A DNA stretch of 63,263 nucleotides. Source: Terriglobia bacterium (GTDB lineage Bacteria; Acidobacteriota; Terriglobia; Bryobacterales; Bryobacteraceae). Position 1 is the first letter of the stretch; each line of letters opens with the position of its first letter. The position numbers and the translations under genes are program-made. The stretch spans positions 1 through 63,263 of the forward strand of contig JAFAWA010000038.1 in NCBI GenBank assembly GCA_019242155.1. Reading direction: 5' to 3'. The notes beneath the pieces are model-generated. The model made no database searches. It saw only the letters and a list, made by a program, of their open reading frames with translations, and was not told the origin of the DNA. Below are positions 17,701-60,705 of the stretch, piece by piece.

Positions 17701-17712
17701 AGGGGGAGAAGC

Positions 17713-26601: not shown

Positions 26602-26627
26602 CTCTGTCCCACACTATGAGGTATCCG

Positions 26628-34436: not shown

Positions 34437-35983
34437 CGCGCGTTCTCCGCCACCGTCTTCTGACCCATTAATTTCTCGAGCAATGCGATGGTGCTGGGCT
34501 TTCGCTCGGGCGGCACAGTTGCAAGAAATTGGCCCTCGGCCCAACTCATCAAAGGACGCCCCTCTTTGTCCTTCAAATCGAGACGGGCGCCGTGCTGGAA
34601 TAGAAATTCGACGATCTCATTCGATCCGCGATTCACTGCCCCGAAAATAGCGGTCAAGCCCATGGAATTCGCCGTGTTTACATCCGCTCCCTTTTGGAGG
34701 CATAGCTTGACGGCTTCCATGAGGGATTCTTTGGATTCGGTGTAAGTCTGCCCCACGGACCAATTGATGCCGGAGGCAGCCATCAAAGCCGTGCTTCCCG
34801 CATAGGTTGGAATGTTGGGATCGGCGCCGTGGTCGAGCAGCAGCCGCATCACTGTAATATCGCCGGATTGAGCAGCTCGCAAGAAGGGCGTCTGGCCCGT
34901 GAAATCGGCCCAGGAGAGATCGCTGATCGGCATCACCCAACGCCGAATCGGCGGAACCTCTTTTGTCCGCGCGTTTACCTTGGCGCCGTGGTCGAGCAGA
35001 GTCTTGAGAAATGTGAGCGGGGCTTCGCGGTCAACATTGTGCTCATCGGAGTGCCCGTAGGTGAATTCGAGATTGCGAATATCAACCGTCTCCCATAGCG
35101 GCGTCCGTCCCCAGAAATCGGTGGCGTTGACATCGGCGCCATGGTCAACGAGAAATTTCGCCAGTTCCAGATGTTCATTGGCGACGGCAATCAACAGCGG
35201 TGTCACGCCGTCAGCTTCGGCCTGGTTGATATCGGCCTTGCCCGCCACGAGCATTTGCGCGATATCCATCCGGCCGTCACGCGAAGCATACAGCAAGGCG
35301 GTCATTCCGCCGGGCGTGGCCTCGCGGGCACCGCGTTCGGGCCATCCACCGCGAATGATTCCCGCGCCGTGCGAACCGCCTCCGGCGTTGGGAGGCCGCC
35401 AGGCGGGAGTCTTACCGACTCGTGTTCGAACGTTGAGGTCCGCGCCGCGCTCGATCAGCAGCCGCACGAGACCGGGTTGATACTCGCGCACCGCGAACAT
35501 TAACGGAGTCTCCTCGGCCACTTGATCCTTCGCATTGACGGACGCGCCGTGATCGATCAATAGCCGCGCGGCTTCCACATTTCCGGTGTGGATGACTTTC
35601 ATCAACGCGGTGTTGCCGCTGGGATCGGCAGAATCGGCGTTGGCTCCGGCGTCCAGAAGCTTCCGGATCATCGGCACGCTCCCATTAGCGCACGCCAAAG
35701 ATAGCGGTGTGAGCCCGTAGCGGTCCGCGGCCTTAACGTTGGCCCCGGCATGGAGAAGCAGGTCCGCGGTTTCGAGATCATCTACCCGGACGGCCCAGTG
35801 CAGGGCGGTCGTACCGTCCGGCAAGGGCTCGTTGACATCTACTTTCTGCTCCACTAGAGATCGAACGGCCGCCCGATCGCCTTTCTGCGCCGCATCCGCC
35901 AGGCGGGGATCATGCCCGGGCGCAGCAAAAGCCCCCAGAGATCCCACGAACAGAAGCCACCACCCGCCGCCTAACCGTTTCAT
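34433..35983 (-). CDS. Secreted ankyrin-repeat protein
   Basis: 516 aa with a signal peptide (MKRLGGGWWLLFVGSLGAFAAPG). It then carries many ANK repeats (DGTTALHWAVR..DLETADLLLHAGANVKA; GLTPLSLACANGSVPMIRKLLDAGANADS; and others). Confidence 0.88.
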   Translation of the reverse strand: MKRLGGGWWLLFVGSLGAFAAPGHDPRLADAAQKGDRAAVRSLVEQKVDVNEPLPDGTTALHWAVRVDDLETADLLLHAGANVKAADRYGLTPLSLACANGSVPMIRKLLDAGANADSADPSGNTALMKVIHTGNVEAARLLIDHGASVNAKDQVAEETPLMFAVREYQPGLVRLLIERGADLNVRTRVGKTPAWRPPNAGGGSHGAGIIRGGWPERGAREATPGGMTALLYASRDGRMDIAQMLVAGKADINQAEADGVTPLLIAVANEHLELAKFLVDHGADVNATDFWGRTPLWETVDIRNLEFTYGHSDEHNVDREAPLTFLKTLLDHGAKVNARTKEVPPIRRWVMPISDLSWADFTGQTPFLRAAQSGDITVMRLLLDHGADPNIPTYAGSTALMAASGINWSVGQTYTESKESLMEAVKLCLQKGADVNTANSMGLTAIFGAVNRGSNEIVEFLFQHGARLDLKDKEGRPLMSWAEGQFLATVPPERKPSTIALLEKLMGQKTVAENAR

Positions 35984-38313: not shown

Positions 38314-39090
38314 TCAGAATCGGAAAACTTCCGAAGGGCTATTTTGCTGAAGAATGGTCAGACACGGCGCGAGGCCGCGCGCTTCGAGTGCCTGGGCGGC
38401 GAACATACGCGCGATTTCCGGATGATTATTCTGCTCGCTGATGTGTCCGAGCATCAGATGGGATACGCTCGGCGGAAGGTCCTGTTCAATGTATTCCGAC
38501 ATGACAAGATTCGAGAGATGGCCGACACGGCTCATGACACGCTGCTTGACCGACCACGGATATGGACCGACCTTCAACATGTCTAAATCGTGATTTGCTT
38601 CGAGCACGAGAAGGTCTGTGCGGCGCAGGTGGTAGCGGACGGATACAGGCAGATAGCCCAGGTCAACGGCAACGCCAATGCGAACGCCGTGAGTTTCAAA
38701 ACAGAAGCCCACGGGATCGGCTGCATCGTGCGGAACGCTGAAGCTGTTGACTTCGATATCGCCGATTTCAAACGTTGCGCCCGCCTGAAATGTCTGGAGC
38801 TGCGGCACGGCCTCTCCCCAGTCAATGAGTGGAGCAGTGAGGCGAGTCAGGTAGATTTGGGCCCGGCACTTCTTATTCCGTGCGAGTACCGGAAGACCGG
38901 CGACGTGGTCGGAATGCTCGTGAGTAATGAGAATTGCGTCGAGCCGTTCAATCTCCTCCCCGATACAAGCCAAGCGGCGGCCGATCTCTCTCAAGCTCAA
39001 ACCGGCGTCGAGAAGAATGCGGGTGTTTTCCGTCGCAAGTAGCGCGGCGTTTCCCGCACTACCACTGGCTAATACACAAAAGGATACGAT
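38314..39090 (-). CDS. MBL-fold metallo-hydrolase; probable non-canonical ATC start
   Basis: The track ORF (TTG 39000) starts inside the fold, with HEHSDHVAGL just downstream. The same open frame upstream encodes the conserved first strand IVSFCVLASGSAGNAALLATENTRILLDAG. It has no ATG, GTG or TTG back to the in-frame TGA. AAGGAG sits 5 nt before ATC (39090). Confidence 0.7.
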   Translation of the reverse strand: MVSFCVLASGSAGNAALLATENTRILLDAGLSLREIGRRLACIGEEIERLDAILITHEHSDHVAGLPVLARNKKCRAQIYLTRLTAPLIDWGEAVPQLQTFQAGATFEIGDIEVNSFSVPHDAADPVGFCFETHGVRIGVAVDLGYLPVSVRYHLRRTDLLVLEANHDLDMLKVGPYPWSVKQRVMSRVGHLSNLVMSEYIEQDLPPSVSHLMLGHISEQNNHPEIARMFAAQALEARGLAPCLTILQQNSPSEVFRF

Positions 39091-39246: not shown

Positions 39247-41679
39247 TTAGAAAGAAAACCCCACTCCTCCGAGCGCGGTTACCCCAGAAGCCCGGTATCC
39301 TTCCGGATAATACGTTTTGTTGAAAAGATTGTCGACCTTTCCGTATACTCGAACGGCCCGGCTTTCTTTAGTCCAGAACTGATAGCTGCCGACGAAATCG
39401 GCTTTGGTCCAACCGGGAATCAGATATGCCTGGTTGTAACCGATGTAGGCGTTCAGCGAACTCGAGTACTTGTACATATCAAAAGTGGTCGTCAACCGCT
39501 TGCCCCATTGTTTGATGATGACGAGCGAAGCACTGTGCCGAGGCACATCGAATATCTGCCAGTAGCCGGGGACAGTGCTGTCCTGATCCGTTTCGGCTCG
39601 CGTGTAGGTGTACGACCCCGTGATCGTCATTCCCGCCATAGGCCGGGCTTCGCCGCTGAATTCCGCGCCCCGCGAGATCCCGCCGGCCCCGTTGATGTAC
39701 CCTGAGGTGCGGCCGTACGGATCGGTGACCGGCAGGATGTTCAGAAACTCGGTGACCTGTACGATACGCGTGTAGAAGAAGGTTCCCGACAACCGAATCC
39801 GGTTTCTAAAGAAATACTGATCCACACCGCCGTCGACGGAGTTGTATCGATCCGGCGCCAGGCGGGGATCTCCGTACGGGGTGAAGACCACCAACTTCGG
39901 ATTCGCGGGGTCGTTATAAAATCCCGCTCCAAAGCGCTCGTAGAGCCCCGGAGCCCGATATGAGTTGCCCACATGAGCGCGCAACTTGGTGCTGGTCTTG
40001 GCAAGAGTGTATGCCACTGATGTGTCGCCCGTCAGCGGCCGCGGCGCCTGCAGCGGCGAATTCACGTATGGATTTGCGGTTCCGGCGTATTCGAAATCAG
40101 GAGTTTTGATCTGGAAGGACTGTGCACGCCCGGAGAACGAAATCTGCAGGCGCTGATTCAACAGCGATAGGCGTGCTGCGAAATATCCGGCGTTCGAATT
40201 CTGCTGCGCATGCGTCGACTCTATGATGAGCTGGGGCGTGGGCAGATTATTGTCCTGGTGATCCGTATAGAACTCACGCTCGAACTCGTAGCCGCCGGAA
40301 AGCGAGAACCAGTGCGTGAAATCCGCTGTTGCGCGCAGGTCAAAGTTATCGATGTTCCCGGCATATTTACCATAATTCGTCGCCAGCGGCTGATAACCGA
40401 CTCCGCCCGGACCGTTTGTGTAAATCCGGTCGGTGCTCGTTTTGTTGTAGATCGCCTGCCAGTTGAATTTCGATGAAACCACGTCTTTGAACGTCACAGC
40501 TCCAGCCAGGAAATGGGACGCGCGCCGGTCGTCCGGATCCCACACATTCGGGACGAATGTGGCGTTCCCGAAGTTGGGTGATCCGCCCAAGGCAAACGCA
40601 TTGGCCTGCGCCACCGTTGCAGGGATGGCGGGGATCGGACCACTCGCCGGCAGGTTCGCCGGATTGATAACCGAGTTTGTCGGGCTATTCCCAAACATCA
40701 GGAAGTCGTCGGTTCCCCAGAAGCGCCCGGTAACGCTCATGCGCGGCGTCAGATTGTAGCGAAGTTGCCCCTGGACACCGGAATTCCTCCAGGGACTGTG
40801 TCCGTCGACACCTTCCATCACGTTTATGGTGACCAGGCCGACGCTGTACTGCAGCCGGTCTTGGAGCGCGCCGCCTCCGAGGCTTGCGCGTCCGCGGTAC
40901 ATGCCGAGGCTGCCGCCCTCCAACTGAATCTGCCCGTGGAATGGACCGCCTCCTTCCTTGGTCACCAGATTGATCGTGCCGCCGACGGCGTTCGTCCCAT
41001 AGAGCGACGAGCCGGAGCCTCGCAGAACCTCCACATGATCCACGTTGACCACCGTCATTGATTCGATGAACGAGCTGATGTCGCCCTGAGGATTGGCGGA
41101 ATCGCGAAGACGAATTCCGTCCACCAGGACCGCCGTGGCGTCAGCCCGGAGACCGCGGGAACTAATCGTGGTCCACTGCCCGGGGCCGCCCAAGTTTTGA
41201 ATGGTCACTCCCGGAGTGGTGGTCAACATATCCGAGATATTGTTGACGTTTCGATTCTCGATTTCCGCTGCGGAGACCACCGTAATGGGCTTGGACACTT
41301 CGTCCAGCATCTGCGCGCCCCCTTCGGCTGTCACGATCACCTGTTGGTTCACACCGGCGAGTTCTAAGGAAACGTCCAGATCTTTACTACTGCTCTTTTG
41401 GATTGTTACGCCCGTGGTCTGGGTGCGGAATCCATCCTTTTGGACCTGCAGTAGAAAGCTGCCCGGCGGGACCCCGACAAACTGATACTGTCCCGAGTCG
41501 GGAGTAACCGTGCGCGAAAATGCGGTTGAGTCCTGCTGGAAGATCTGCACGGTCGCGCCGCTCACCGCATTTCCTTGCGGATCGACGATCCTGCCCCGCA
41601 GTGCGGTTTCGCTTTGCGCGTATAAACCAGAACCCGCGAATACGGTTGTAAATAGCGCAGCTAGTCTGAACGACGTCAT
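39247..41679 (-). CDS. TonB-dependent receptor with N-terminal carboxypeptidase-regulatory-like domain
   Basis: The track ORF extends to 41919, but the signal peptide MTSFRLAALFTTVFAGSGLYAQ starts at ATG 41679. The CarboxypepD_reg-like region is LRGRIVDPQGNAVSGATVQIF and the plug is ITVVSAAEIENR..GVTIQNLGG. A long barrel ends in GGVGFSF with a terminal Phe. Confidence 0.9.
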   Translation of the reverse strand: MTSFRLAALFTTVFAGSGLYAQSETALRGRIVDPQGNAVSGATVQIFQQDSTAFSRTVTPDSGQYQFVGVPPGSFLLQVQKDGFRTQTTGVTIQKSSSKDLDVSLELAGVNQQVIVTAEGGAQMLDEVSKPITVVSAAEIENRNVNNISDMLTTTPGVTIQNLGGPGQWTTISSRGLRADATAVLVDGIRLRDSANPQGDISSFIESMTVVNVDHVEVLRGSGSSLYGTNAVGGTINLVTKEGGGPFHGQIQLEGGSLGMYRGRASLGGGALQDRLQYSVGLVTINVMEGVDGHSPWRNSGVQGQLRYNLTPRMSVTGRFWGTDDFLMFGNSPTNSVINPANLPASGPIPAIPATVAQANAFALGGSPNFGNATFVPNVWDPDDRRASHFLAGAVTFKDVVSSKFNWQAIYNKTSTDRIYTNGPGGVGYQPLATNYGKYAGNIDNFDLRATADFTHWFSLSGGYEFEREFYTDHQDNNLPTPQLIIESTHAQQNSNAGYFAARLSLLNQRLQISFSGRAQSFQIKTPDFEYAGTANPYVNSPLQAPRPLTGDTSVAYTLAKTSTKLRAHVGNSYRAPGLYERFGAGFYNDPANPKLVVFTPYGDPRLAPDRYNSVDGGVDQYFFRNRIRLSGTFFYTRIVQVTEFLNILPVTDPYGRTSGYINGAGGISRGAEFSGEARPMAGMTITGSYTYTRAETDQDSTVPGYWQIFDVPRHSASLVIIKQWGKRLTTTFDMYKYSSSLNAYIGYNQAYLIPGWTKADFVGSYQFWTKESRAVRVYGKVDNLFNKTYYPEGYRASGVTALGGVGFSF

Positions 41680-41765
41680 GAATATTTCCTTTCCGATTGG
41701 GCCATGATTCGATAGCGCAAGACGGGGACAGGCCGACATCGGCTGCCCGTGTGCGTTAGCGGCAG

Positions 41766-42950
41766 CTATGCCGCATCGTGCAACTGGCCGGTGGAGTGTC
41801 CGAGCCGCGGCTCGCGCCGCATCCTGGCGAGTTTCCTCGCAAGCACGCGATTCCACCACATGAGAAATCCGGTGATTGCGAGCAGCGCAGGGACAATGCC
41901 CATGAGCACCCAGAGACACTTCATCACCAGCCCGAAGTTTCCGAAGTGCAACGCATTAAGCCACACCAGGAAGCTCTCCCCAGCCCTGCGCCTCGTTGCT
42001 AATTGCAGCTTCACGATCTCTCCCGTGATGGGATCAACGTCGACGTTGCTGACGGAGGGGTAATCGCGAATGCCACCGCTCATCAGGGCCACTCGAAGCG
42101 CTCGACGCGGCTCATTTGGAATACTGACGTATTCCAGCCAAGAGCCGGGCACGGCTCTCGAGGCAGTGTCCAGAAGCCGGCTTAGCGGTAAGGGCTGTGC
42201 GCCCGGGTGCAATGGAATGGCGGCGGTTTCGGTCGGCCGCACCGTCGAGACGATCGAGACCAAAGCTTTGGTCTGTTTCGGCCACACGAAATACGCGCCG
42301 CTCGCCGAAAACATCAGCGTGAATAGGAGCGTAAAGAATCCTACGGTGCTGTGGAGGTCGTAGTTGACCCGCTTCCAACTCGCCGACCATCGGATGCTCA
42401 CGGCGCGCATCCAATATTTTTGGCCAGGCCACCACACCACCATGCCGGTCAGGCACAACAGTAAGAGCGCCAGTCCACCCGCGCCGTTTACAATTCTTCC
42501 GGTGGGTCCTGAAAGAAGGTTGATGTGCAGGTCGTCGAGCCACGCGAGAAAATCCTGGTTCAACTCCGGGCCGCGCTTGCCTACAATCGCTCCGGTAAAA
42601 GGATTGACGAAGACGGAACCGCGCTTACCATCGGATTGAATAGAAGCGCGGAAGGTGGATTGGGCGCTATAGGGAAGGCCCAACCCTGTTACCGTGGCGT
42701 TCGGGTAAGCGGCTATGACCGACTCCACAACCTTCTCAGCCGGAATATGGGGACCGCTGCCCGCAACGGTCAGGAGATCTTTAACCTGCCAGTCGCGGAT
42801 TTCCGGAGCAAATACCAGCAAGCTTCCGGTAAGCCCGACCACCACGGCATAGACCGCTGCCGCCAACCCTGCGTAGAGGTGGATCTGAAACAGCCACTCG
42901 CGTGCGGCGAAGGAGCGCGGCTTTTCGTAGATGCGTCGCACAACATTCAT
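41766..42950 (-). CDS. PepSY-associated TM-helix protein (PiuB/FoxB-like membrane protein)
   Basis: REWLFQIHLYAGLAAAVYAVVVGLTGSLLVF, DDLHINLLSG and LNALHFGNFGLVMKCLWVLMGIVPALLAITGFLMWW. The start is either ATG 42950 (MNVVRRIYEK) or the track start 42983. Confidence 0.85.
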   Translation of the reverse strand: MNVVRRIYEKPRSFAAREWLFQIHLYAGLAAAVYAVVVGLTGSLLVFAPEIRDWQVKDLLTVAGSGPHIPAEKVVESVIAAYPNATVTGLGLPYSAQSTFRASIQSDGKRGSVFVNPFTGAIVGKRGPELNQDFLAWLDDLHINLLSGPTGRIVNGAGGLALLLLCLTGMVVWWPGQKYWMRAVSIRWSASWKRVNYDLHSTVGFFTLLFTLMFSASGAYFVWPKQTKALVSIVSTVRPTETAAIPLHPGAQPLPLSRLLDTASRAVPGSWLEYVSIPNEPRRALRVALMSGGIRDYPSVSNVDVDPITGEIVKLQLATRRRAGESFLVWLNALHFGNFGLVMKCLWVLMGIVPALLAITGFLMWWNRVLARKLARMRREPRLGHSTGQLHDAA

Positions 42951-43007
42951 CAATGATGAACCCTCTCCCGAAATCTCAACCATGACCGGCCTCAGAGCAA
43001 TGATTTT

Positions 43008-44198
43008 CTAGCTCCGGGAGATCAACTGGAACTGCTCGACCTTCTCGCCGAGAATTTTTTGCGAATCGACCTCGAGCCACTGTTCGAGGACGTTCGCGTA
43101 GATCCCGCGGAAGTCGATCTTCGCGGGTAGTCCGCCGTCATTGGCGTTGGCGATATCCGGAAGGTCGCCGTGAATGCCCGCGCGGACCTTTCCACCCATG
43201 GCGAATACCAGGCCGGCATCGCCATGATCTGTGCCGCCCTCGCGATTCTCGCCCACCTGCCGTCCGAAATCGGAAAACGTCAATAACTGCACGCGCGAAA
43301 GCCGCCCGGCGGCCTTGAGATGCTCGGCGAAGGAACGCATTCCGCTTGCGAACTCGGAATACAGGACCTTGTGGATGTTTCGCTCGTCGCTATGTGTGTC
43401 AAAGGAGTACGGAGTATCGAAGGAGCCGAGGGTCACATAATACAAGCGCGTGGGAGCGCCGCTTTCAATCATGTTGCCGGCCCACCGTAGCGATTCTCCA
43501 AAAACTGTATTGGGATAGCTGAACCGCGACCCGGTTCCCTTACTCGCCTTGGCAAGTTGCCGTCCCATTTCGGCTAACTCGTTCTCCACCATCCGCAGAT
43601 GATCGAGCTTCGCGGCCGCAGGTGTTGCCGCGGGCGCCTTGGATTCCATTTGCATCAGTACCTTCGGATTGGCGATGGAACAGCTGCGGCCGCTACGGGA
43701 AGAAAGCGTCCGGTTCAGCATGTCCCCGAACTCGATGCCGGCTAATGCCCCGGCCTCCGCGGTCTGATCGAGGTACCGCCCGAGCCAGCCCTCGGCGGGG
43801 GCCTGCTCAGCGGTGCTGCCGGTCTCGAAAATCTCCGGCCCGCGGGTATGAGAGCGCGAAGAATTCGGATATCCGACATTGAGGATCGCGCTACCGTAAC
43901 CCTGATCGATCAGCCACTGGAAATCCGCGAGAGCCGGGTTCAATCCGAGGTCGCGGCCCTGAAGCGGAAGCGTCTCCTTCGAAGAGATCGCGATCGTGGG
44001 CCGTCCTTTGTAGTAGTGATCGTCGCGGATCGGAACGACCGCATTCAGCCCGTCGTTTCCTCCCCGCATCCTAACGATGATTAAAATATTGCCTTCATAA
44101 GACCCGTCGACGGCGAGCGCACTCTGCTGAAAAAACAGCGGAATCGCAGGCGTGAGCGCGCCCCATTGCAGAAAGCGGCGTCGATTGAAGCTGGACAT
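43008..44198 (-). CDS. DUF1501 domain-containing protein (Tat signal), second copy
   Basis: 396 aa with MSSFNRRRFLQWGAL, GGNDGLNAVVPIRDD, SFDTH and GGTDHGDAGLVFAMGGKVRAG. Confidence 0.82.
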   Translation of the reverse strand: MSSFNRRRFLQWGALTPAIPLFFQQSALAVDGSYEGNILIIVRMRGGNDGLNAVVPIRDDHYYKGRPTIAISSKETLPLQGRDLGLNPALADFQWLIDQGYGSAILNVGYPNSSRSHTRGPEIFETGSTAEQAPAEGWLGRYLDQTAEAGALAGIEFGDMLNRTLSSRSGRSCSIANPKVLMQMESKAPAATPAAAKLDHLRMVENELAEMGRQLAKASKGTGSRFSYPNTVFGESLRWAGNMIESGAPTRLYYVTLGSFDTPYSFDTHSDERNIHKVLYSEFASGMRSFAEHLKAAGRLSRVQLLTFSDFGRQVGENREGGTDHGDAGLVFAMGGKVRAGIHGDLPDIANANDGGLPAKIDFRGIYANVLEQWLEVDSQKILGEKVEQFQLISRS

Positions 44199-44227
44199 GT
44201 ATCTTCTCCTGATTCGAACGTTACCTG

Positions 44228-45709
44228 CTAGGCCAACTGATACTCGGGGGTCGCCAGAACCCGGCGCACCATCTCCTGGCTGCGTTTTGCCGGCGGAACT
44301 GCCTTCACGCTCCGTTCCAAAACCGCGGTATCGATGCCCGGGGCCGGATCGAGCCGTCTGAGGATGCTGGGCAACGGCCTATCGAGCGGTTTCGAGACCA
44401 CCGCGGGAGCGGTTGATGGAACCGGCGTCTCCGGAAGTAGACCCCAGGACGTATCTCCGCCGCACAGGGCAGCTCCCAACTGGTATCGCGCCGCCAGCCT
44501 TTCCGGCGGATTGGTCCACTCTTCCTGGCCGGGCCATCCCTCGCCCCCAAAGTTGGGTGCATCGAGCAGCGTCTGTCCGGAAGCGGTCATCCAGGTGTCG
44601 ATCGCAGCAAAGGGCGGATTCGATATTCCCAACTGGCGGCAAACGCCCACCACGAGATGCACCGGACTCTTGACCAGATTCCAGCGGGACGCGGGCGACC
44701 AGAACTCCTGACTCATCACTAAGTCGGCCAGCAGCGCCTCCACCGATCCTTTGGTGGTGTGATACGTCTCGGTCATCTGACCCGCAAGCCGCCCATCCGG
44801 ATCCTCGACGCCGAAATGCCGAATCATGAGCTTGCTGAAACGCCGGGCGGTGAGATCGTGCATTGCGAGGAATCGCACGGCATCGCGTGCTCCAAAATTG
44901 CGCGTGGTCCCGAGAATCGTCTTTGGGCCGTCGTCGAAGAACTCGGGATGAAACACAGGATTCAACCCCATCCGTCGATTAGAAGTAAACGCCTGGGGGT
45001 CGATCGGCTTGGGAGGCTGGACGCCTTCGGACGCCTCCAGCACCCAGCCCGTCAACGCGCGCGCGAGCGCCATTGTGTCCTCTCGTGAGTAATTTCCGGG
45101 CCCGATCGTCCAGTTATCGAACACTCGCGTGGCCGAAAACTCGGGCGGTTTCTCCTTCTTGGCCTCCTCGTAACTTTCCTGCATAATCATGCCGGGGTCG
45201 AGCACCATGGCTTCGACCATGTCCGGGATCGTGCCGAAAACGGCTTTTCGCAATAGTGCGTTGTATCCGTAGAGGGCCTGCGGGCCATCAATCACACGGC
45301 CGGATCCGCCGAAAACTCCGTGGAAGAAGAGGACCAGATTCTCCCGCAGAGGGGCCGTTCCGTTAATCATTTCCTGTAGCCACCACTCGCGCAGCACGGC
45401 CGCGTCGCGGCGGTTCGACTGACTGACCGCGTTTCGCATGGCCGCAATTTGGCTATTGGTCGTATCGGTAAACCGTAACGCTCTGTTGGTCCAGGTCCCT
45501 CGCGCGACGGCGGGCGTTTCCGGCAGGGCAGCCTCCCTGGACGCAGCCACCAGCGACCGGAAGGCGGCCGGAAGCGGTTTTCCTTCGATGGCTCGTTGCT
45601 GAGAGGGAGTGGCGGCGAAAGTGAGCCGACGCAGCAAATGACACGCGTCGGAGCTACCGCGGAGCACAATAGAAGACGGCGAATGGCTCATGTGGCCGAA
45701 TGCTAGCAT
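44228..45709 (-). CDS. DUF1800 domain-containing protein, second copy
   Basis: 493 aa with LLRRLTFAATP, LFFHGVFGG and GPGNYSREDTMALARALTGW. It is followed after 29 nt by DUF1501. An alternative start is ATG 45691. Confidence 0.78.
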   Translation of the reverse strand: MLAFGHMSHSPSSIVLRGSSDACHLLRRLTFAATPSQQRAIEGKPLPAAFRSLVAASREAALPETPAVARGTWTNRALRFTDTTNSQIAAMRNAVSQSNRRDAAVLREWWLQEMINGTAPLRENLVLFFHGVFGGSGRVIDGPQALYGYNALLRKAVFGTIPDMVEAMVLDPGMIMQESYEEAKKEKPPEFSATRVFDNWTIGPGNYSREDTMALARALTGWVLEASEGVQPPKPIDPQAFTSNRRMGLNPVFHPEFFDDGPKTILGTTRNFGARDAVRFLAMHDLTARRFSKLMIRHFGVEDPDGRLAGQMTETYHTTKGSVEALLADLVMSQEFWSPASRWNLVKSPVHLVVGVCRQLGISNPPFAAIDTWMTASGQTLLDAPNFGGEGWPGQEEWTNPPERLAARYQLGAALCGGDTSWGLLPETPVPSTAPAVVSKPLDRPLPSILRRLDPAPGIDTAVLERSVKAVPPAKRSQEMVRRVLATPEYQLA

Positions 45710-45737
45710 GGCCCCAAAAGAAGCAATCCGGCGGCGC

Positions 45738-45790
45738 GGTCAATCGCCGGTCACTAACCGCCGATTCGTGGTCACGCGCGGTCACCGGCG
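45738..45790. promoter_or_regulatory. Phased array of GGTCAC-type hexamers upstream of DUF1800
   Basis: Copies are GGTCAA at 45738, GGTCACTAACCG at 45749-45760, GGTCAC at 45770 and GGTCAC at 45780 (within GCGGTCACCGGCG, 45778-45790). The spacings are 11, 21 and 10 bp. The array fills most of the 96-bp spacer. Confidence 0.5.
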
Positions 45791-45805
45791 TACTAATGCG
45801 TCCGC

Positions 45806-47425
45806 CTACGGCGCTGTGCGGCGGGCTTGCGCCATGGTCATGGTGGCCGCGGGAGTCATGGCGTCGTAATAAGCGTTGAAACGGCGGGGCTCCGGCGCGT
45901 TATAGGACTTCAGATTATTGGCCCAGCGGTAGCCAATCGGCTGATACAGCAGCTCAACGTCTACGGTGAACGGACCCGCGGCATCGCCGAGCGGGACGGA
46001 ATATCGGACGCGGTCGCCGGCATCGGTGAAATTCGGATCGCTTGCGGCCTCACCGATTACGGCGATCTCGGGGCCGGCGGTGCGCTTGTCAAAGCCATGC
46101 GGCAGCAGCCGGTTATCTTTGATGTACCGTACCGCGGTAAGCAGGCCGGTGGTCACTCGACCAGTGGGGTCGGCCATGACCGATTCGTAGATCTGAACCT
46201 GATCGCTCGTGCGGATCTCGCGGTAATGGGGCTCGAAACGGCGCGGATCGGCATCATTATCGTTGCCCTGGATCGATCCGTCGGGATTGAGCGCGCCCGA
46301 TTCGAAGATGATCTTCTGGTTACGGTCGCGGACGGCCAGGTGCAGCCAGGTCCTGCGGGACGGATACGCGCTGGGCAGTTTGTGACCACCGAGGTTTTCG
46401 ACAAAAACATCGGCTTCGAGCCGCCCGCCCGCGACCGCGGCCTTTTCGATCGACAGCTTCACGCCCTGCGCTTGCAGATACCGTATGGTGTAGTCGGCCT
46501 GACCCGATAGCTCTTCGGGCAGCGCGCTTACCCTCAGCTCGTCACGAAAGCGGTTCAGCATCCGAAGCATGAAAAAGTTGGAAGCCACGAAGACGTGGCG
46601 CGCCACGTTCTCCCGGGGCTTGCCGAGCACGCGGGCGATGGGAACGTTCTCTTCGACCGCCGGCATGTGGCAGCTCTGACAGCTCTTCTGATCCTTATAA
46701 CTGCTGTGCAGCCACTCCTCGAAGGGCACCTGTTCCGGCAGTTCGCCGATCACGGCGTCCCCGGCACCGAGGGCCTCGGTATATAGGGTGTGGCAGGTGG
46801 CGCAAAGCTCGGATTTACGGATATGGTCATTCTTCGTCGGGTGGTAGCCTTCCGAAGAGCTTCGCATGATGCGGGTCTGGCCCTTCTCGATATCAAAGGG
46901 TCCGTACTCGGGGCGGTTGTCGGCGGCGTCGGGCGGGTCGATGACGAAGCCTCCGTTGAAGCTCTCGCGAGTGCCCAGCTTCTGTTCTCCGATCTGATGG
47001 CACACCGAGCAAGAGACCCCATCCTCGGCTTTGGCGCCGTTTTTTGGGTCGGCCTCGAAGGGTAAATGCGAGAAGACTTGGCCCTTCGCTCCGCGGAGCT
47101 TGGCCTCATAGCGAACGATGGGCATGTGGCATACGGCGCATTCGTCTTCGATATCGGCTTTGCGGTTGGGATGATCGATGGTCTCGCGCCGCACACTCGC
47201 CTGCCAGTAGGGATCGCGGGAGGAGTTGGCCATGATACTGGCGCGCCAATTGAATCCGATGGAGATGTCTTCGCCGGATGGAGTTTGGAGGCCGTTGTGG
47301 CACACCATGCAGCGATCGGAAGTTTGAAACCGCGGCTGCAACTCCTTCCGCCGCGCGCCGGCGGCAGTTCTTAGAACGGTAAACAGCAGCAGAGCTGTGA
47401 GAGCGGCCGAAACCCTCCGGGTCAT
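45806..47425 (-). CDS. Secreted pentaheme c-type cytochrome with heme-free C-terminal domain
   Basis: 539 aa with signal peptide MTRRVSAALTALLLFTVLRTAAG. It has five CxxCH motifs: CMVCH, CAVCH, CSVCH, CATCH and CQSCH. About 250 aa at the C-terminus carry no heme motif. Its start abuts the stop of the upstream cytochrome-barrel gene (TAAATG). Confidence 0.88.
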   Translation of the reverse strand: MTRRVSAALTALLLFTVLRTAAGARRKELQPRFQTSDRCMVCHNGLQTPSGEDISIGFNWRASIMANSSRDPYWQASVRRETIDHPNRKADIEDECAVCHMPIVRYEAKLRGAKGQVFSHLPFEADPKNGAKAEDGVSCSVCHQIGEQKLGTRESFNGGFVIDPPDAADNRPEYGPFDIEKGQTRIMRSSSEGYHPTKNDHIRKSELCATCHTLYTEALGAGDAVIGELPEQVPFEEWLHSSYKDQKSCQSCHMPAVEENVPIARVLGKPRENVARHVFVASNFFMLRMLNRFRDELRVSALPEELSGQADYTIRYLQAQGVKLSIEKAAVAGGRLEADVFVENLGGHKLPSAYPSRRTWLHLAVRDRNQKIIFESGALNPDGSIQGNDNDADPRRFEPHYREIRTSDQVQIYESVMADPTGRVTTGLLTAVRYIKDNRLLPHGFDKRTAGPEIAVIGEAASDPNFTDAGDRVRYSVPLGDAAGPFTVDVELLYQPIGYRWANNLKSYNAPEPRRFNAYYDAMTPAATMTMAQARRTAP

Positions 47426-48559
47426 TTACCAGCCTTCCTTCAGACTGCCGTCAAACCAGTCCCAGAGTACATAGAAGACTGCCTGGACGGGACGGCCCTG
47501 GGTGTTGGTTACGGGGACGTCGATGCCGAAGTCTGCCCGGACGTGCTGCCGCCTGCTCAAGGTCACCTGGAACTCGGGAAGGATATCGTAACCGGTCTTA
47601 GCGCCGGTGAGAAGGTCGCGCCGGGCCAGGATTTCCAGCATAGGGGTCCACATGCGGCCATCCCCCTGGCCCTGCCGCAGGCCCTTCCCCAGAGACTCCC
47701 GCCAAAACAGAGATTGAGGGGCGGTGCGGGTATTGGCAGACAGGTTTGCGCCCACTTCGCCCTGGAAGAAAAAGTTGTAGGGTAATAGCTGCCCATAGGC
47801 GGCGAAGGTCTCGAACGTGGTCACACCCGCGCCCGTGCCTCTCCTCGGACTGCCTGTGGGCGCTATTACGGTGCCGTCGATGCTGAAAATCGAGCCGGTG
47901 CGGTTATTGAGCCCGAGCACCCGCAGCCAGCCCAGCCCGATGTCTCCAATCCCACCCAGCCAGCGCCCGGTGCTGTGTGTGAACGCGACCGGGACGGTCG
48001 CATCGATCTCGTTTTTGACGCCCACGCGATGCTCGTACTCGATTTCGTTGTTCACTCCCGGCGCGCCGTGGGCATTGAGCGTCGTAGTGCTGATGACCTC
48101 GTCTTCGGGGAATGCCTTGTCCACCATCAGGGGCCTTGGCAGATTTAGTTCGCCTCGCGGCCATTCGGGCTCGCGGCAGAGAGTTCGCAAGTAGCCGATC
48201 ACGAGGTCGATCTGCTCGGAAGTGAGTGCCTCGCTGAAAGACGGCATTATCGGGGAGAAGCCGCGCCCGGGGCCGCCGCGGCGGATCGTGGCTTTCCAGT
48301 CGGCATCGAGTTCCGGCGTGGTTCCGGAGCAATCGGAGAAATCGGGGAACGTAGCGGGTTTTTTGAAGACCAGCGTCGTATCCGGCTGTCCCTTGCCGTC
48401 CGGCCCATGGCAAGCGACGCAGGCCGCCAGATAGATACTCTTACCCGAGCCGAGATCCAGTTCGCCGGTCTGGCTGTTCTGCGGGAGAAGCACGGCGGGG
48501 TAAGTGAGCAGAAGCAGAACCGCAATTACGAGCGGCGGAAGTCCCAGCGGTGTTTTCAC
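47426..48559 (-). CDS. Monoheme class-I cytochrome c domain fused to a predicted outer-membrane beta-barrel domain (Cyc2-like architecture)
   Basis: The track ORF extends to 48706. GTG 48559 gives a signal-peptide-like start (V)KTPLGLPPLVIAVLLLLTYPAVLLPQ. The cytochrome region is GKSIYLAACVACHGPDGKG...IMPSFSEALT. About 230 aa of alternating hydrophobic pattern follow, ending ...VLWDWFDGSLKEGW with a terminal aromatic residue as in OMPs. Confidence 0.7.
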   Translation of the reverse strand: MKTPLGLPPLVIAVLLLLTYPAVLLPQNSQTGELDLGSGKSIYLAACVACHGPDGKGQPDTTLVFKKPATFPDFSDCSGTTPELDADWKATIRRGGPGRGFSPIMPSFSEALTSEQIDLVIGYLRTLCREPEWPRGELNLPRPLMVDKAFPEDEVISTTTLNAHGAPGVNNEIEYEHRVGVKNEIDATVPVAFTHSTGRWLGGIGDIGLGWLRVLGLNNRTGSIFSIDGTVIAPTGSPRRGTGAGVTTFETFAAYGQLLPYNFFFQGEVGANLSANTRTAPQSLFWRESLGKGLRQGQGDGRMWTPMLEILARRDLLTGAKTGYDILPEFQVTLSRRQHVRADFGIDVPVTNTQGRPVQAVFYVLWDWFDGSLKEGW

Positions 48560-48700
48560 TGAGTCAAGAAAAGAACGGTGGGCCGTCCTTTCCGAGGGCC
48601 TGGAGTTGAGGGAAGTATGATTGGGGTCGTAGACCAATTCCAATGATATATTTTCTGAGGCAAAGCTGAAGCCGGCAGTTCTCGCCACCCAACGCCTGGC

Positions 48701-48737
48701 GGTCACAGTTAGTCAGTAACCGGATGTAACGAGTCAC
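48701..48737. promoter_or_regulatory. Phased GGTCAC-type hexamers upstream of the cytochrome operon
   Basis: Copies are GGTCAC at 48701, AGTCAGTAACCG at 48711-48722 and AGTCAC at 48732, with spacings of 10 and 21 bp. The middle element matches the 12-mer at 45749 and 60685 in 10/12 positions. Confidence 0.45.
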
Positions 48738-48927
48738 GGGAGCTTTTTGCAGTAACTTACAGGATTCGGTGGCGGAACAGAGGGACGGACGTTCCGAAGG
48801 AAAGGGTCGCTTGCGTACACCGGGCGCCTGCCAAACCGCGTCTCGGTGTTAGCTTAGGCATGTCGGCGTTGCGCAATTCGGCCGGGGGTCTTGTCTCAAA
48901 TCGGTCGCGTATTGAGGGAACTTACAC

Positions 48928-50094
48928 ATGCAACTCAAATCGATACTGCTTCTTCTGCCTGTGGCATTGGCTGCCTCGGGGCAAGCACTTAAAGTGGAGA
49001 TGCTCGCCAATCCATCGGGCGCGGAGAGTCTTCAAGCGCATTGGGGCACCGCTTCCGATGAGAGCCCCCTGTTAAGCTGGCTTGAAAAATCGAAGGACGG
49101 CTCGCTTTCGCTGCGCTATGCGGTTCGGCGGGGCGCTCAGTGGTCTGAGCCGCGCGTGATTGTTGCCAATCGCCAGTTCTTCCGCCAACCCGCCGAAGCA
49201 CCGTCCGTGATCTCCTTCCGCAACGGCTCGTTACTGGCGGAATGGGTCGAGGTGCCTCCGGGATCGGGAGAGGCTGAAAATCTATATGTCTCGAGCTCCA
49301 AGGATGGAACGCAATGGACGGCTCCGGTAATGGCCCATCGGGACAGGAGTCCCGTTCAGCATGCGTTGGCCTCCTTTACGGCGAGCGGCGACAATGAAGG
49401 GTCCGTTGTTTGGTTGGAAGCCTTGAAAGGCGAAGATGCGCCGTCCGCGCTGAAAAGGACTCTCGTCAATGGTGACGGCGCAGTGGTCAAAGAGGAGACT
49501 CTGGACTCCGACGTTTGCACCTGCTGCCCGACGAGTATAGTGAAGACCGCGAAGGGGCTGCTGGTCGCCTACCGTGACCATACCTCGAAGGATATTCGTG
49601 ATATCGCGGTCGTTCGTCTGGAAAACGGCCGCTGGCTGCCTTCGCGAATCGTGAACCCGGATAATTGGGAGATCAATGCATGCCCGGTGAACGGACCGGC
49701 GGCGGCGGCCAACAACAATCGTGTGGCGATCGCATGGTACACGGAAGCGCAAGACAGCCCGCGCACGCTGCTTGCCTTTTCCAGCGATGGCGGGGCGAGT
49801 TTCTCGAAGCCGATCAAGATCAGCACCGGCAACTCCTTCGGCCATACTTCAGTGACACTCGCTGATAATGGCGATGCGATGGTTTCGTGGCTCGAAGAGG
49901 GCTCTGGGGACCGCGTGCGGCTGCTCGCGCGTCAGGTGACGAATGCGGGTGTTGCCGGCCCGGTGGTCGAGGTCGCACAGGACGCGCAGAGGAGTATCGG
50001 ATACCCCAGATTGCTGCAGGTGCGCAACGAAACCTGGATTGCTTGGGGCAATTCGGGCAGCACCAAGATCCACACCGCCCGAATAGTGAAGTAG
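48928..50094 (+). CDS. Secreted BNR-repeat (sialidase-like beta-propeller) protein
   Basis: 388 aa with signal peptide MQLKSILLLLPVALAASG. BNR/Asp-box motifs are SSSKDGTQWT and FSSDGGASFS. Confidence 0.75.
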   Translation: MQLKSILLLLPVALAASGQALKVEMLANPSGAESLQAHWGTASDESPLLSWLEKSKDGSLSLRYAVRRGAQWSEPRVIVANRQFFRQPAEAPSVISFRNGSLLAEWVEVPPGSGEAENLYVSSSKDGTQWTAPVMAHRDRSPVQHALASFTASGDNEGSVVWLEALKGEDAPSALKRTLVNGDGAVVKEETLDSDVCTCCPTSIVKTAKGLLVAYRDHTSKDIRDIAVVRLENGRWLPSRIVNPDNWEINACPVNGPAAAANNNRVAIAWYTEAQDSPRTLLAFSSDGGASFSKPIKISTGNSFGHTSVTLADNGDAMVSWLEEGSGDRVRLLARQVTNAGVAGPVVEVAQDAQRSIGYPRLLQVRNETWIAWGNSGSTKIHTARIVK

Positions 50095-50187: not shown

Positions 50188-50214
50188 GTGACCGTGCGTA
50201 ACCCGGGAGTGACC
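50188..50214. promoter_or_regulatory. GTGACC-GTAACC-GTGACC phased triplet upstream of the PepSY gene
   Basis: Copies are GTGACC at 50188, GTAACC at 50198 and GTGACC at 50209, with spacings of 10 and 11 bp. They sit in the 278-bp spacer and are the reverse complement of the GGTCAC arrays. Confidence 0.4.
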
Positions 50215-50372: not shown

Positions 50373-51905
50373 ATGCTAATCCTGATCAGGAAGATGGCCA
50401 TCGTGTGCCACCGCTGGACGGGGGTGGTGTTCTGTCTGTTGTTCGCCTGGTGGTTTGTGTCGGGGATCTTCATGATGTATTGGGATTTTCCGGGCATCAG
50501 CGAAGCGGATCGCCTCGCGCGATCTGAGGCCGTCGACGCCTCCCGCATCAGGGTATCGCCCTCCGCGGCCTACGCTACATTGAAGCAGGAACGCCCTCCG
50601 TCGACCGCGCAGCTCGTGATGTTCGCGGGCCGGCCGGCCTATCGCTTTTCAGGGGAGGGTGGCCGGCGGGGCGCGCAAACGCTCGTCTATGCGGACGATG
50701 GGACACGGCAGGAGCAGTGCGCCGACGCGCTCGCCCTGAGGGTTGCGGCAGCTTGGACAGGCCAACCGCAAACGCTGGCCCGAGTGCAGGAAATGACTGA
50801 CGTGGATCAGTGGACGATCCAAGGCCAGCTCCGAACTCTTCGACCGCTTATCAAATACTCCTGGCCGGACGGAGAGCAGGCATACGTCTCCAAGCGGACC
50901 TGCGCGGTGGTTCAATATACGACGCGCAGCTCCAGAACCTTCGCACATTTAGGCGCCATTCCTCACTGGCTCTATTACACTCCTTTGCAAAAAAACGGCC
51001 TGTTGTGGACCCGGATCGTGATCTGGTCCTCGGGGCTTGCGACGCTCGCGGCGCTGCTGGGGCTCATTGTAGGCATCTCCCTGTACTCGCCTTCGAAACG
51101 CTATTGGGTTTTTGGGGAGCCGACCGGCATTCCTTACAAGGGCCAGAAACGCCTGCATATGATTTTCGGTCTCTTTTTCGGAATGGTTGCCTGCACTTGG
51201 GCTTTCAGCGGAATGCTGTCCATGGACCCGTTCCCAGCGACCACGGCAGGGGAGACCGGCGGCCGAAGCGCCGGGAACCGTATGCTGGCGGCGCTCCACT
51301 CGGGGCGGCTGCAGATGGGCGCGTTCGACGCGAAACCGCCGCGCGAGGCTTTGGCCGAAGTCGCTTCTCAGCTTCGCGTCAAGCAGTTGGATTTCACCTG
51401 GTTTGTTGGCGATCCCGTGTACCTTGCCAGTGAAGATCCGCGGCACACCCGGATTATCCCGGTTAACGGCCCGGCGGCGGAGCATTTCGATAGCGCCCGC
51501 ATCATCCAGATTCTCAAATTGGCCAGCCAACCGGCCGGCTTGGCTGAAGCTCGCGTTCTTAACGAATATGACGCCTATTATGAGGACAGGCTCGGCGAAA
51601 AGCCTTTGCCGGTGATTCTGGCGCGTCTCAATGACAAACAACAGACGCGATATTACATCGATCCTCGAACGGCACGAGTGGTCGGCAGCTACAATTCCCG
51701 CCTATGGATGACCCGCTGGCTTTACCACGGCTTACACTCGCTGGACTTTCCGCTCTTATACAAACATCGCCCGGCTTGGGATGTGGTAGTGCTTTCGCTG
51801 CTGCTCGGCGGTACTGCGCTCTGCGTGACTTCGGTCATCCTCGCGTGGCAGCTCATGCGTAGGAAATTGGCGCCTCCTTCGCAGCGGAGCCGTGCCGCCT
51901 CATAG
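50373..51905 (+). CDS. PepSY-associated TM-helix protein (second copy)
   Basis: 510 aa with MAIVCHRWTGVVFCLLFAWWFVSGIFMMY, AHLGAIPHWLYY, LAALHSGRL and WLYHGLHSLDFP..VVVLSLLLGGTALCVTSVILAW. Confidence 0.83.
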   Translation: MLILIRKMAIVCHRWTGVVFCLLFAWWFVSGIFMMYWDFPGISEADRLARSEAVDASRIRVSPSAAYATLKQERPPSTAQLVMFAGRPAYRFSGEGGRRGAQTLVYADDGTRQEQCADALALRVAAAWTGQPQTLARVQEMTDVDQWTIQGQLRTLRPLIKYSWPDGEQAYVSKRTCAVVQYTTRSSRTFAHLGAIPHWLYYTPLQKNGLLWTRIVIWSSGLATLAALLGLIVGISLYSPSKRYWVFGEPTGIPYKGQKRLHMIFGLFFGMVACTWAFSGMLSMDPFPATTAGETGGRSAGNRMLAALHSGRLQMGAFDAKPPREALAEVASQLRVKQLDFTWFVGDPVYLASEDPRHTRIIPVNGPAAEHFDSARIIQILKLASQPAGLAEARVLNEYDAYYEDRLGEKPLPVILARLNDKQQTRYYIDPRTARVVGSYNSRLWMTRWLYHGLHSLDFPLLYKHRPAWDVVVLSLLLGGTALCVTSVILAWQLMRRKLAPPSQRSRAAS

Positions 51906-53720: not shown

Positions 53721-54653
53721 TCAATGTGAACCAGCCATTCTTGTTCTGCGATTCCACCACAGGATAAGTCCGGTTATGGCTAAGAATGCAGTAAAAAGAC
53801 TCGCCGAGGCCCAGAGAATGCGCATAGCCATCGACGGAAATTGGCCAACGTGAAACGTGTAAGACAGGCGAGCGAGTGGTGACGGTACCCGAAGCTGGAG
53901 GGTAGTTTCGGTAATCAGCACAGCGGCGGTGACTGCGAATATGAAAACGAGCGGGAAGGTCCAAAAGCCGACGGCGCTATGGAACTCCCAATGGAATCGC
54001 CTCAACTGTAAATGACGGCGAATTCGCAGGTGCCGCCGCCATCGGCTGACGCCAGGCCACCAGATCACGATCCCAGTAGAGGCTAACGAAGCAAGCAGAG
54101 CAGCTCCCAAACCATTTACCCGGCGCCCGCTCGCCCCCGAACATAAGTTCGTGTGGAGATCCTTCACGGAATTTAACAGGCGCACCGGGAAAGGTCTCGC
54201 GGTACCCAAGTCTTCTCCTGTGAATGGATCGAAGAGACGCTCGGTCTGGTTGCGTCCGTGAGTCAACCAGATTTCGACCGGAAGATTGCTCCGCTCCCAA
54301 ATCCAAGTCACCGAGGAGCCCGGATGCGCCTTAAGGGCTGCCTCCTTCAGCTGTGCGCGGGTCAGATGCTTAGCACGAACCTCAATATGAGGGTGCGGCG
54401 TTAACCCCCGGTAAAGCTCCGCGTAAAATACCAAGACACATCCGGTAAGGCTCATCATCACGACGTACAGTCCGGCTCCGACTCCTATCCAACTGTGGAT
54501 GCGAAATAGAAACTGCCGGGCAGACAAGCGCTGCGGATGCCCAACCCAGGTTCGCCACGTGGAGGAGAGCGCCGGAACTACCGAAAACAGCTGCAGTTTG
54601 CGCCATCGGATTAGAAGCCCACACGGTCCCCCCGTTGCCGGCATGAACGACAT
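53721..54653 (-). CDS. PepSY-associated TM-helix protein (third copy), last gene of the czc operon
   Basis: 310 aa with FLFRIHSWIGVGAGLYVVMMSLTGCVLVF, VKDLHTNLCSG and GLGAALLASLASTGIVIWWPG. It starts 6 nt after the czcA stop. Confidence 0.8.
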   Translation of the reverse strand: MSFMPATGGPCGLLIRWRKLQLFSVVPALSSTWRTWVGHPQRLSARQFLFRIHSWIGVGAGLYVVMMSLTGCVLVFYAELYRGLTPHPHIEVRAKHLTRAQLKEAALKAHPGSSVTWIWERSNLPVEIWLTHGRNQTERLFDPFTGEDLGTARPFPVRLLNSVKDLHTNLCSGASGRRVNGLGAALLASLASTGIVIWWPGVSRWRRHLRIRRHLQLRRFHWEFHSAVGFWTFPLVFIFAVTAAVLITETTLQLRVPSPLARLSYTFHVGQFPSMAMRILWASASLFTAFLAITGLILWWNRRTRMAGSH

Positions 54654-54659
54654 TATAAG

Positions 54660-57731: not shown

Positions 57732-57736
57732 TGTGC

Positions 57737-60177: not shown

Positions 60178-60259
60178 AAACTCCTTTGAATGCAGGAATA
60201 ACCGTCGTAGCGCCGGCAGGCGCAAAGTCCGGACACACAAATGTCAGTGCTGGGGAGAG

Positions 60260-60671: not shown

Positions 60672-60705
60672 CCAGGTCACCGCAGGTCACTAACCGTCAT
60701 TGACC
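60672..60705. promoter_or_regulatory. GGTCAC direct repeats plus shared 12-mer upstream of the czc operon
   Basis: The sequence is CCAGGTCACcgCAGGTCACTAACCGtcatTGACC. GGTCAC occurs at 60675 and 60685 (10-bp spacing). GGTCACTAACCG at 60685-60696 is identical to 45749-45760. The array lies 38-68 bp upstream of the His-rich ORF start. Confidence 0.5.

Follow-up and report, generated by a model that had tools for sequence, protein, structure and literature searches.

Six co-directional genes on the minus strand of contig JAFAWA010000038.1 (GenBank assembly GCA_019242155.1), from a Terriglobia bacterium of the family Bryobacteraceae, place two c-type cytochromes beside members of the DUF1800 and DUF1501 families, a PepSY_TM membrane protein, and a TonB-dependent receptor. 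The window that we analyzed is the whole stretch of 63,263 nucleotides. An original prediction, made from the sequence and a list of its open reading frames (ORFs), had interpreted the six genes as parts of a single route of redox-coupled metal acquisition. ORF listing, translation, and Pfam/NCBIfam assignments bore out the six genes in the order originally given (39247 to 48706), and the gaps of 0, 96, 29, 24 to 57, and 86 bp agree with the ORF boundaries as read.

The first two genes, here called module A, encode a class I cytochrome c joined to a barrel (47426..48559; Pfam Cytochrom_C, 6e-9) and a secreted pentaheme cytochrome of 539 amino acids with five CXXCH motifs (45806..47425), with a gap of 0 between them. 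The longest ORF of the cytochrome-barrel gene extends to 48706, and a start at ~48559 gives the 377 amino acids called in the database here and in all homologues. The other four genes, module B, encode a DUF1800 protein (44228..45691; Pfam, 2.9e-63, 215 bits, full profile), a DUF1501 protein with a twin-arginine translocation (Tat) signal (43008..44198; Pfam, 5e-24), a FoxB-like PepSY_TM inner-membrane protein (41766..42983; PepSY_TM, 5.5e-64, and PepSY, 1.3e-9), and a TonB-dependent receptor (39247..41679; CarboxypepD_reg, 2e-18, and Plug, 4e-23). The DUF1800 ORF opens at 45709, and comparison with an orthologous locus, L084, places its likely start at 45691, from which the gap to the pentaheme gene is 114 bp rather than the 96 bp counted from the ORF. 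Alignment to the L084 orthologue likewise puts the likely start of the PepSY_TM gene at 42950, while the receptor, whose ORF extends to 41919, likely starts at 41679 (MTSFRLAALF…). We consider it probable that this 9.5-kb run is a juxtaposition of modules A and B, each conserved independently of the other, and that module B is an uptake locus of receptor and FoxB-like reductase to which DUF1501 and DUF1800 are accessory.

Gene neighborhoods of the two modules

The claim that the six genes constitute one system was not borne out, as co-location of all six was found at 0 of 84 cytochrome-anchored loci and 0 of 13 DUF1800-anchored loci. The co-occurrence check, set beforehand, thus found no conserved neighborhood for the six-gene set, an outcome that had been named in advance as refuting it.

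Module A recurred with other neighbors. On five contigs bearing relatives of the pentaheme protein at 65 to 76% identity, a ~380-amino-acid Cytochrom_C gene lay immediately upstream, often with a 4-bp overlap, and the genes flanking the pair differed, without relation, from locus to locus. The same pair with unrelated flanks was found at L104, whose cytochrome-barrel protein is the one most closely related to that of the window (76%). A tblastn search of 83 cytochrome loci with the six window proteins recovered the cytochrome-barrel gene in 80, the three misses being contig edges, while DUF1800 and DUF1501 were each found in 0/83, PepSY_TM in 1/83, and weak receptor matches in 9/83. A wider panel of queries, which added eight DUF1800/DUF1501 sequences and several PepSY_TM and receptor sequences (E ≤ 1e-3; 84 loci, L001 to L083 and L104, from distinct species or contigs, 1.46 Mb), returned no DUF1800 or DUF1501, PepSY_TM at one locus, and generic receptor matches at 14. 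The closest relatives of the pair (76 to 80% identity) were likewise free of DUF1800/DUF1501 neighbors, and no third cytochrome gene was present at any of the 84 loci examined for neighbors. Given the absence of DUF1800/DUF1501 from all 84 loci, the single PepSY_TM match, and the unrelated flanks, the cytochrome pair is an autonomous two-gene module, and it is very widespread in Acidobacteriota. The pentaheme family comprises at least 8000 database clusters at 55 to 80% identity (64 to 80% among the matches listed) and at least 524 confirmed stretches in one-genome-per-species GTDB contigs, the majority from Acidobacteriota. The cytochrome loci belong mainly to Bryobacterales, Terriglobales, and Vicinamibacterales, with some metagenome-assembled genomes labelled Gammaproteobacteria, Methylomirabilota, and Dormibacterota.

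The orthologues of the window DUF1800 protein form a small group of ~80 clusters at 36 to 64% identity. Among 13 loci that are mutually ≤68% identical in DUF1800, PepSY_TM was present at 12, in several gene orders and usually as the immediate neighbor of the pair, and a TonB-dependent receptor was present at all 10 of the PepSY_TM-positive loci with enough flank. The cytochrome pair was found at 0 of these 13. As controls, we used six distant DUF1800/DUF1501 pairs (25 to 29% identical) from Paraburkholderia, Burkholderia, Novosphingobium, Ralstonia, Chondrinema, and Rhizobium, together with the second pair of the window; their neighbors were typed by tblastn, the plasmid records being mostly unannotated. 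PepSY_TM was found at 0/7 controls and a receptor within 9 kb at 2/7, and for PepSY_TM the contrast of 12/13 with 0/7 has a Fisher exact p of 1e-4. The original prediction had set DUF1800/DUF1501 between the cytochromes and a reductive uptake module; the link to the uptake module stands as a gene neighborhood, while that to the cytochromes was not found elsewhere. The coupling of DUF1800/DUF1501 to PepSY_TM is clade-specific. A metagenome scan with the single DUF1800 protein returned no relatives, and a scan with an alignment returned 11 loci, mostly short.

The closest of these loci, L084 (Bryobacteraceae; 64% identity in DUF1800), keeps the order of the window, DUF1800-DUF1501-PepSY_TM-CarboxypepD_reg receptor, with no cytochromes; Fur and another receptor lie upstream of it, and CusF, CusB, OEP, YtkA, and an RND pump lie downstream. 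At L086 (51%), a receptor and PepSY_TM are divergently upstream, followed by DUF1800-DUF1501-receptor. The window receptor is orthologous over its full length to those of L084 (50%) and L086 (40%). Other arrangements are receptor-PepSY_TM-DUF1800-DUF1501 at L100 (48%), ExbB-DUF2149-CobN-like-PepSY_TM-DinB-receptor-DUF1800-DUF1501 at L111 (50%), and, at the gammaproteobacterial locus L101 (38%), receptor-DUF3649-PepSY_TM-DUF3325 followed by DUF1800-DUF1501. At the metagenome loci L088 to L095 (38 to 48% for L088 to L092 and L094), PepSY_TM stands directly beside the pair wherever a flank exists. The sole exception, L098 (51%), has neither PepSY_TM nor receptor and is rich in insertion sequences.

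Several further genes were seen beside module B. A secreted protein of ~141 to 144 amino acids with a TIGR03067 domain adjoins DUF1800/DUF1501 at seven loci (L089, L091, L092, L094, L098, L100, and L101; e.g., L100 12744-13169) and is absent from the window and from L084. Genes for a CobN-like chelatase, DUF2149, and ExbB/MotA adjoin module B at two independent loci (L100 504-6109 and L111 422-5372), a set that presumably resembles Hmu-type clusters for heme uptake and dechelation. Two secreted, weakly DUF4198-like proteins whose predicted mature N-terminus begins His-Phe are encoded after receptors at L084 (16455-17141 and 6737-7420). The window gene downstream of the receptor (38314-39000, 228 amino acids) was considered as a counterpart of the 228-amino-acid DUF4198-like gene of L084 and rejected, since it encodes an unrelated MBL-fold protein.

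Predicted proteins of modules B and A

The DUF1501 protein matches its family (Pfam PF07394) at 85.6 bits against a cutoff of 27. Both arginines of its N-terminal twin-arginine motif, NRRRFLQ, are invariant in 14 relatives, and the Pfam TAT_signal match reaches only 0.25. Also invariant in these relatives, which include the divergent second copy of the window, are D49, S114, H117, D267, H269, H276, and H325; from sequence, D49, S114, H117, D267, H269, and H325 look like a metal site of the alkaline-phosphatase-superfamily kind. The DUF1800 protein (family PF08811) has no signal peptide and no hydrophobic N-terminus, and most of its invariant residues are Trp, Gly, or Arg, without a cluster of His/Cys. 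AlphaFold2 predicted an all-alpha structure with high confidence (pLDDT 90, pTM 0.90), for which no fold match was found among 350,542 PDB chains (best E = 2); a comparison of the sequence with solved structures gave nothing usable (best E, 0.5), and Pfam searches at E ≤ 10 added nothing for DUF1800 or DUF1501. Since a Tat-signal DUF1501 invariably accompanies DUF1800, the simplest interpretation is export of the two as a complex, in which DUF1501 would be exported by the Tat pathway and would probably carry its signal-less partner across the membrane. Once in the periplasm, the two proteins may act on the metal complex that is imported or on its ligand, with DUF1501 in a putatively catalytic role.

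The PepSY_TM protein covers the full profile of its family (PF03929) at 217 bits against a cutoff of 28.8 and has a periplasmic PepSY domain (PF03413; 1.3e-9) at residues 264 to 325. Its sole solved relative is FoxB (PDB 7abw; 1.7e-16). His35, His153, and His211 align to FoxB histidines, and His346 lies in the equivalent fourth motif, LHxG, before the last helix. These are the conserved positions for ligation of two b hemes, and heme binding is predicted accordingly from the alignment. FoxB is a diheme ferric-siderophore reductase (bioRxiv 10.1101/2021.01.28.428567), HiuB behaves like FoxB (PMC12424826), and PA3789 and CrpH are the proposed copper counterparts (PMC8610252, PMC13038864). The receptor has a Plug domain (PF07715; 3.8e-23), and its matches to solved receptors, namely, Cir, BtuB, and FhuA but not OprC, extend over the plug only. 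The plug is followed by ~560 residues with the C-terminus GFSF, a pattern shared by the L084 and L086 orthologues. None of its 810 residues is a cysteine and no CxxxM or HxM motif is present, so the receptor lacks an OprC-type copper site. Taken in order, the receptor would import an oxidized metal complex, most likely an Fe(III) chelate with Cu(II) as the main alternative, and the diheme PepSY_TM protein would reduce it at the periplasmic face.

Module B resembles FoxA/FoxB of Pseudomonas aeruginosa and HiuABC of Caulobacter crescentus, in which a receptor gene adjoins one for a four-helix PepSY_TM protein, and it shares with FoxB a homologous PepSY_TM protein, the histidines of the heme-ligand motifs, and the periplasmic PepSY domain. 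In contrast to those systems, module B of the window has no DUF3649, DUF3325, or HiuC-type small membrane partner, its receptor carries an N-terminal CarboxypepD_reg domain, and a conserved DUF1800/DUF1501 pair is part of the module. The same two-gene logic is found in OprC/PA3789 of P. aeruginosa and CrtA/CrpH of Bordetella pertussis; module B is also like these in having a heavy-metal efflux operon nearby, with a cis-element in common, while its receptor differs from OprC/NosA-type receptors in having no CxxxM-HxM site and no cysteine at all. Modules of receptor and PepSY_TM are already known (FoxA/FoxB, bioRxiv 10.1101/2021.01.28.428567; HiuABC, PMC12424826; OprC/PA3789, PMC8610252; CrtA/CrpH, PMC13038864), and the conserved inclusion of the DUF1800/DUF1501 pair is the new element. 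A link of this pair to metal uptake was not described in the literature mentioning either family, nor in the PepSY_TM literature that we searched.

In module A, the cytochrome-barrel protein consists of a signal peptide, a class I cytochrome c domain with the only CXXCH motif of the protein (CVACH at residue 47 of 377), and a C-terminal barrel ending in EGW. The ~250 C-terminal residues of the ORF have no Pfam/NCBIfam assignment, and the barrel was formerly a guess; it is now supported by predicted strands and by structural matches. With 25 homologues as the alignment, AlphaFold2 modeled residues 150 to 370 as 12 to 13 antiparallel strands (pLDDT 80 to 90), while the cytochrome domain was poorly modeled, as expected without heme. 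The top Foldseek matches of the barrel against PDB were 12-strand outer-membrane barrels, led by FapF (4e-8) and a COG4313 channel (3e-5) and followed by NanC and PcoB. The pentaheme protein has a signal peptide, five CXXCH motifs within residues 39 to 253, and a conserved C-terminal domain of ~280 amino acids, a distant relative of the Ig-like domain in Thermochromatium tepidum c552; the family profile matches that domain (PDB 5ze8) at E = 3.7e-4, with only ~48 residues aligned confidently. A weak Pfam match to MtrC domain II/IV (3.4e-7) is just at the cutoff. Assignment as NrfA, Hao, or Mtr was considered and rejected, since matches to generic multiheme models were weak and none exceeded the cutoffs of those families. 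We infer that module A may be an electron-transfer unit reaching from the periplasm to the outer membrane.

Literature searches found no description of the cytochrome-barrel/pentaheme pair, which is apparently undescribed. Like the fused cytochrome-porin Cyc2, the cytochrome-barrel protein joins one N-terminal c-heme motif to an outer-membrane barrel in one polypeptide. Cyc2 of iron oxidizers has a short heme segment inside a 16-strand porin, whereas the protein described here has a full class I domain of ~100 residues and a 12- to 13-strand barrel of the FapF/COG4313 kind; furthermore, its gene is always paired with a pentaheme cytochrome. The pentaheme protein shares with T. tepidum c552 the succession of five CXXCH motifs and a nonheme domain, but it is 100 residues longer and obligatorily paired with the cytochrome-barrel gene, and the relationship is very distant. 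To our knowledge, c552 itself has no settled function. As in Mtr/Pcc conduits and the EET1/EET2 systems of Acidobacteriota, an outer-membrane barrel is encoded beside a multiheme cytochrome. Unlike in those systems, which have large porins and cytochromes with 8 to 13 hemes (bioRxiv 10.64898/2026.05.27.727921), the window barrel has 12 strands and its own monoheme domain, and its partner carries five hemes. In an Mtr/Pcc conduit, the large porin encloses a periplasmic cytochrome with ten or eight hemes and a further cytochrome lies at the surface, an arrangement that the pair does not show.

TGACC elements and other genes of the window

Between the pentaheme stop and the DUF1800 start lie phased TGACC repeats on the minus strand (45739..45785; GGTGACC-GCGC-GTGACC…GGTTAGTGACC-GGCGAT-TGACC). 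On their 3' side, before DUF1800, is the extended -10-like sequence TGCTAGCAT (45708-45700, minus strand). The palindrome ATGCTAGCAT lies 8 nt before the ATG at 45691 and, at L084, 7 nt before the called DUF1800 start, where phased TGACC/GGTCA copies also occur upstream of the gene. Since the first ATG of the palindrome is out of frame with the gene at L084, we interpret the palindrome as an extended -10-like element (TGnTAGCAT) and take the downstream ATG as the DUF1800 start; a promoter of its own is accordingly predicted for module B.

The same TGACC element, as GGTTACTGACTAACTGTGACC, is found on the minus strand ~140 bp upstream of the cytochrome-barrel gene (48701..48721), and as GTGACCGTGCGTAACC on the plus strand (50188..50203) upstream of a second PepSY_TM gene at 50373-51905. 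Three phased copies, ATGACG-GTTA-GTGACC-TGCG-GTGACC (60675..60705, minus strand), lie ~40 bp upstream of a His-rich ORF of 125 amino acids that heads an efflux operon, and the site before the cytochrome genes matches this one at 15/17 specified positions. With one mismatch allowed, the window has four copies of GTGACC-N4-GTGACC where 0.21 would be expected, before DUF1800, before the PepSY_TM gene at 50373, before the efflux operon (60675-60690), and inside dnaN. The pattern GGTTANTGAC occurs three times against 0.17 expected, a statistic that is inflated because the pattern was picked after the sites had been seen; all three copies, upstream of DUF1800, the cytochrome-barrel gene (48712-48721), and the efflux operon, lie between genes and are oriented like the genes that they precede. 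Upstream of cytochrome pairs elsewhere the element was absent, both in 71 loci scanned over 400 nt each, of which only the zero count is relied on, and in L104, L001, and L003. The period of 10 to 11 bp suggests that the repeats are a candidate operator of the response-regulator type, and no regulator gene was found in the window. Altogether, a phased TGACC element before both modules, another PepSY_TM gene, and the efflux operon hints at shared regulation in this genome only; such coregulation would be lineage-specific, and the sites give no evidence for a conserved system.

The efflux operon (53721-60637, minus strand) encodes the His-rich secreted protein, an outer-membrane factor, a CzcB-like adaptor, a CusA/CzcA pump (TIGR00914 at 1134 bits against a cutoff of 701), and a PepSY_TM protein (3.5e-39) whose gene begins only 6 bp after that of the pump. 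We know of no description of a FoxB-like reductase inside an efflux operon. The PepSY_TM paralogue at 50373-51905 (plus strand, 510 amino acids) has relatives (33 to 46%) near DUF1800/DUF1501 at L092, L094, and L100, and is separated from module B by a BNR-repeat gene (48928-50094) and by the cytochrome pair. The window also contains a second DUF1800/DUF1501 pair (15892-18954, plus strand), which is divergent and has no receptor or PepSY_TM neighbor. Together with a related pair of PSCyt/PSD (DUF1585/1587/1588/1592/1595) and DUF1552 (HXXSHH) genes at 30814-34544 (minus strand), the window holds three cassettes of a large partner and a small exported protein, two of them DUF1800/DUF1501 and one PSCyt/DUF1552. 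Genes of replication-origin type (recF-like, gyrB, dnaN, and dnaA, then parB, parA, and gidA/mnmG) lie at 2887-10136 and 24837-29019, which marks the window as chromosomal and suggests that it probably lies near the origin. Its right end carries a Mutator-family transposase gene (62130-63095).

Metal, alternative explanations, and significance

A number of points weigh against reading the run as two juxtaposed modules, one of them an uptake locus with a DUF1501/DUF1800 accessory. The module B sample is 13 loci, and the controls are few and from other phyla. Sequence and profile searches with DUF1501 returned no solved relative, and its placement in the alkaline-phosphatase superfamily, after the Pfam clans, is putative. 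Pfam models of the 22-strand TonB barrel gave no receptor match at E ≤ 0.01, and no paper giving DUF1800 or DUF1501 a function was found. Furthermore, the TGACC element is found before the cytochrome pair as well, so that cooperation of the two modules is possible in this organism. A scan found no intrinsic terminator between the pentaheme and DUF1800 genes, where the folded hairpin was not better than shuffles (z = -1.5); with co-directional genes, short gaps, and no convincing terminator, read-through from one to the other is possible.

We weight iron somewhat above copper as the metal of module B. Iron-type neighbors are Fur at L084, the CobN-like, ExbB, and DUF2149 genes at L100 and L111, and DUF3649 and DUF3325 at L101; copper-type neighbors are the Cus-type efflux genes of the window and L084, and a cis-element is shared with the efflux operon. 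It is unlikely, in our judgment, that module B handles copper, with the receptor importing Cu(II) or a Cu chelate, PepSY_TM reducing it, and DUF1501/DUF1800 serving as a periplasmic copper-handling accessory. Such a role would fit the CusA/CzcA-type efflux operon that lies 12 kb away, ends in a PepSY_TM gene, and carries the same TGACC element, as well as the position of the L084 module next to CusF, CusB, an outer-membrane factor, YtkA, and an RND pump, and it has literature precedents in the proposals for OprC/PA3789 and CrtA/CrpH (PMC8610252, PMC13038864, PMC12914433). However, a receptor with no cysteine, CxxxM, or HxM offers no OprC-type site, OprC is not among its solved relatives, and other module B loci, as well as L084 itself, adjoin the iron-type genes named above.

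We regard as very unlikely the explanation originally proposed, that all six genes form one redox-coupled metal-acquisition system in which outer-membrane cytochromes exchange electrons with a substrate handled by the other four. The co-directional genes with gaps of 0 to 114 bp, the lack of a strong terminator, the GGTTANTGAC/phased TGACC sites upstream of both the cytochrome pair and DUF1800 (3 against 0.17 expected), and a region from 39 to 61 kb rich in metal-related genes are all consistent with it. Yet the two sets are adjacent at 0/84 and 0/13 loci elsewhere, including relatives at 76 to 80% and 64% identity; neither 71 other loci nor the closest relatives have the TGACC element before their cytochrome pair; and DUF1800 has a promoter-like sequence of its own, kept at L084, where the cytochromes are absent.

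We also give little credence to an incidental adjacency of DUF1800/DUF1501 to PepSY_TM and receptor, the pair having an unrelated role such as scavenging ester-linked nutrients: these genomes are very rich in TonB receptors and PepSY_TM genes, the window itself has PepSY_TM genes at three places as well as a second DUF1800/DUF1501 pair without such neighbors, generic receptor matches occur near 14/84 unrelated loci, and the orthologue locus L098 has neither partner, but PepSY_TM is near only 1/84 same-phylum control loci against 12/13 orthologue loci, it is usually the immediate neighbor despite shuffled orders and ≤68% identity, and L098 is rich in insertion sequences.

The cytochrome pair, represented in the genomes of hundreds of species and among thousands of proteins from soil metagenomes, may serve dominant soil bacteria as a redox device of the outer membrane. 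DUF1800 and DUF1501 are among the commonest unassigned protein pairs of Acidobacteriota, Planctomycetota, and Verrucomicrobiota, and DUF1800 has a confidently predicted fold without a solved relative. A clade reproducibly wired to a FoxB-like reductase and receptor gives these families their first testable context. A bolder proposal, possible but to our minds doubtful, is that PepSY_TM reductases of the FoxB type have a dedicated partner in the periplasm in one DUF1800/DUF1501 clade, and that in this organism a phased TGACC operator places this clade, the outer-membrane-tethered cytochrome pair, and the CusA/CzcA efflux pump under common control, in a single regulon for redox-linked metal homeostasis. 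If true, TonB-dependent metal acquisition would gain a new class of component, and two very large families of unknown function would receive their first functional assignment.

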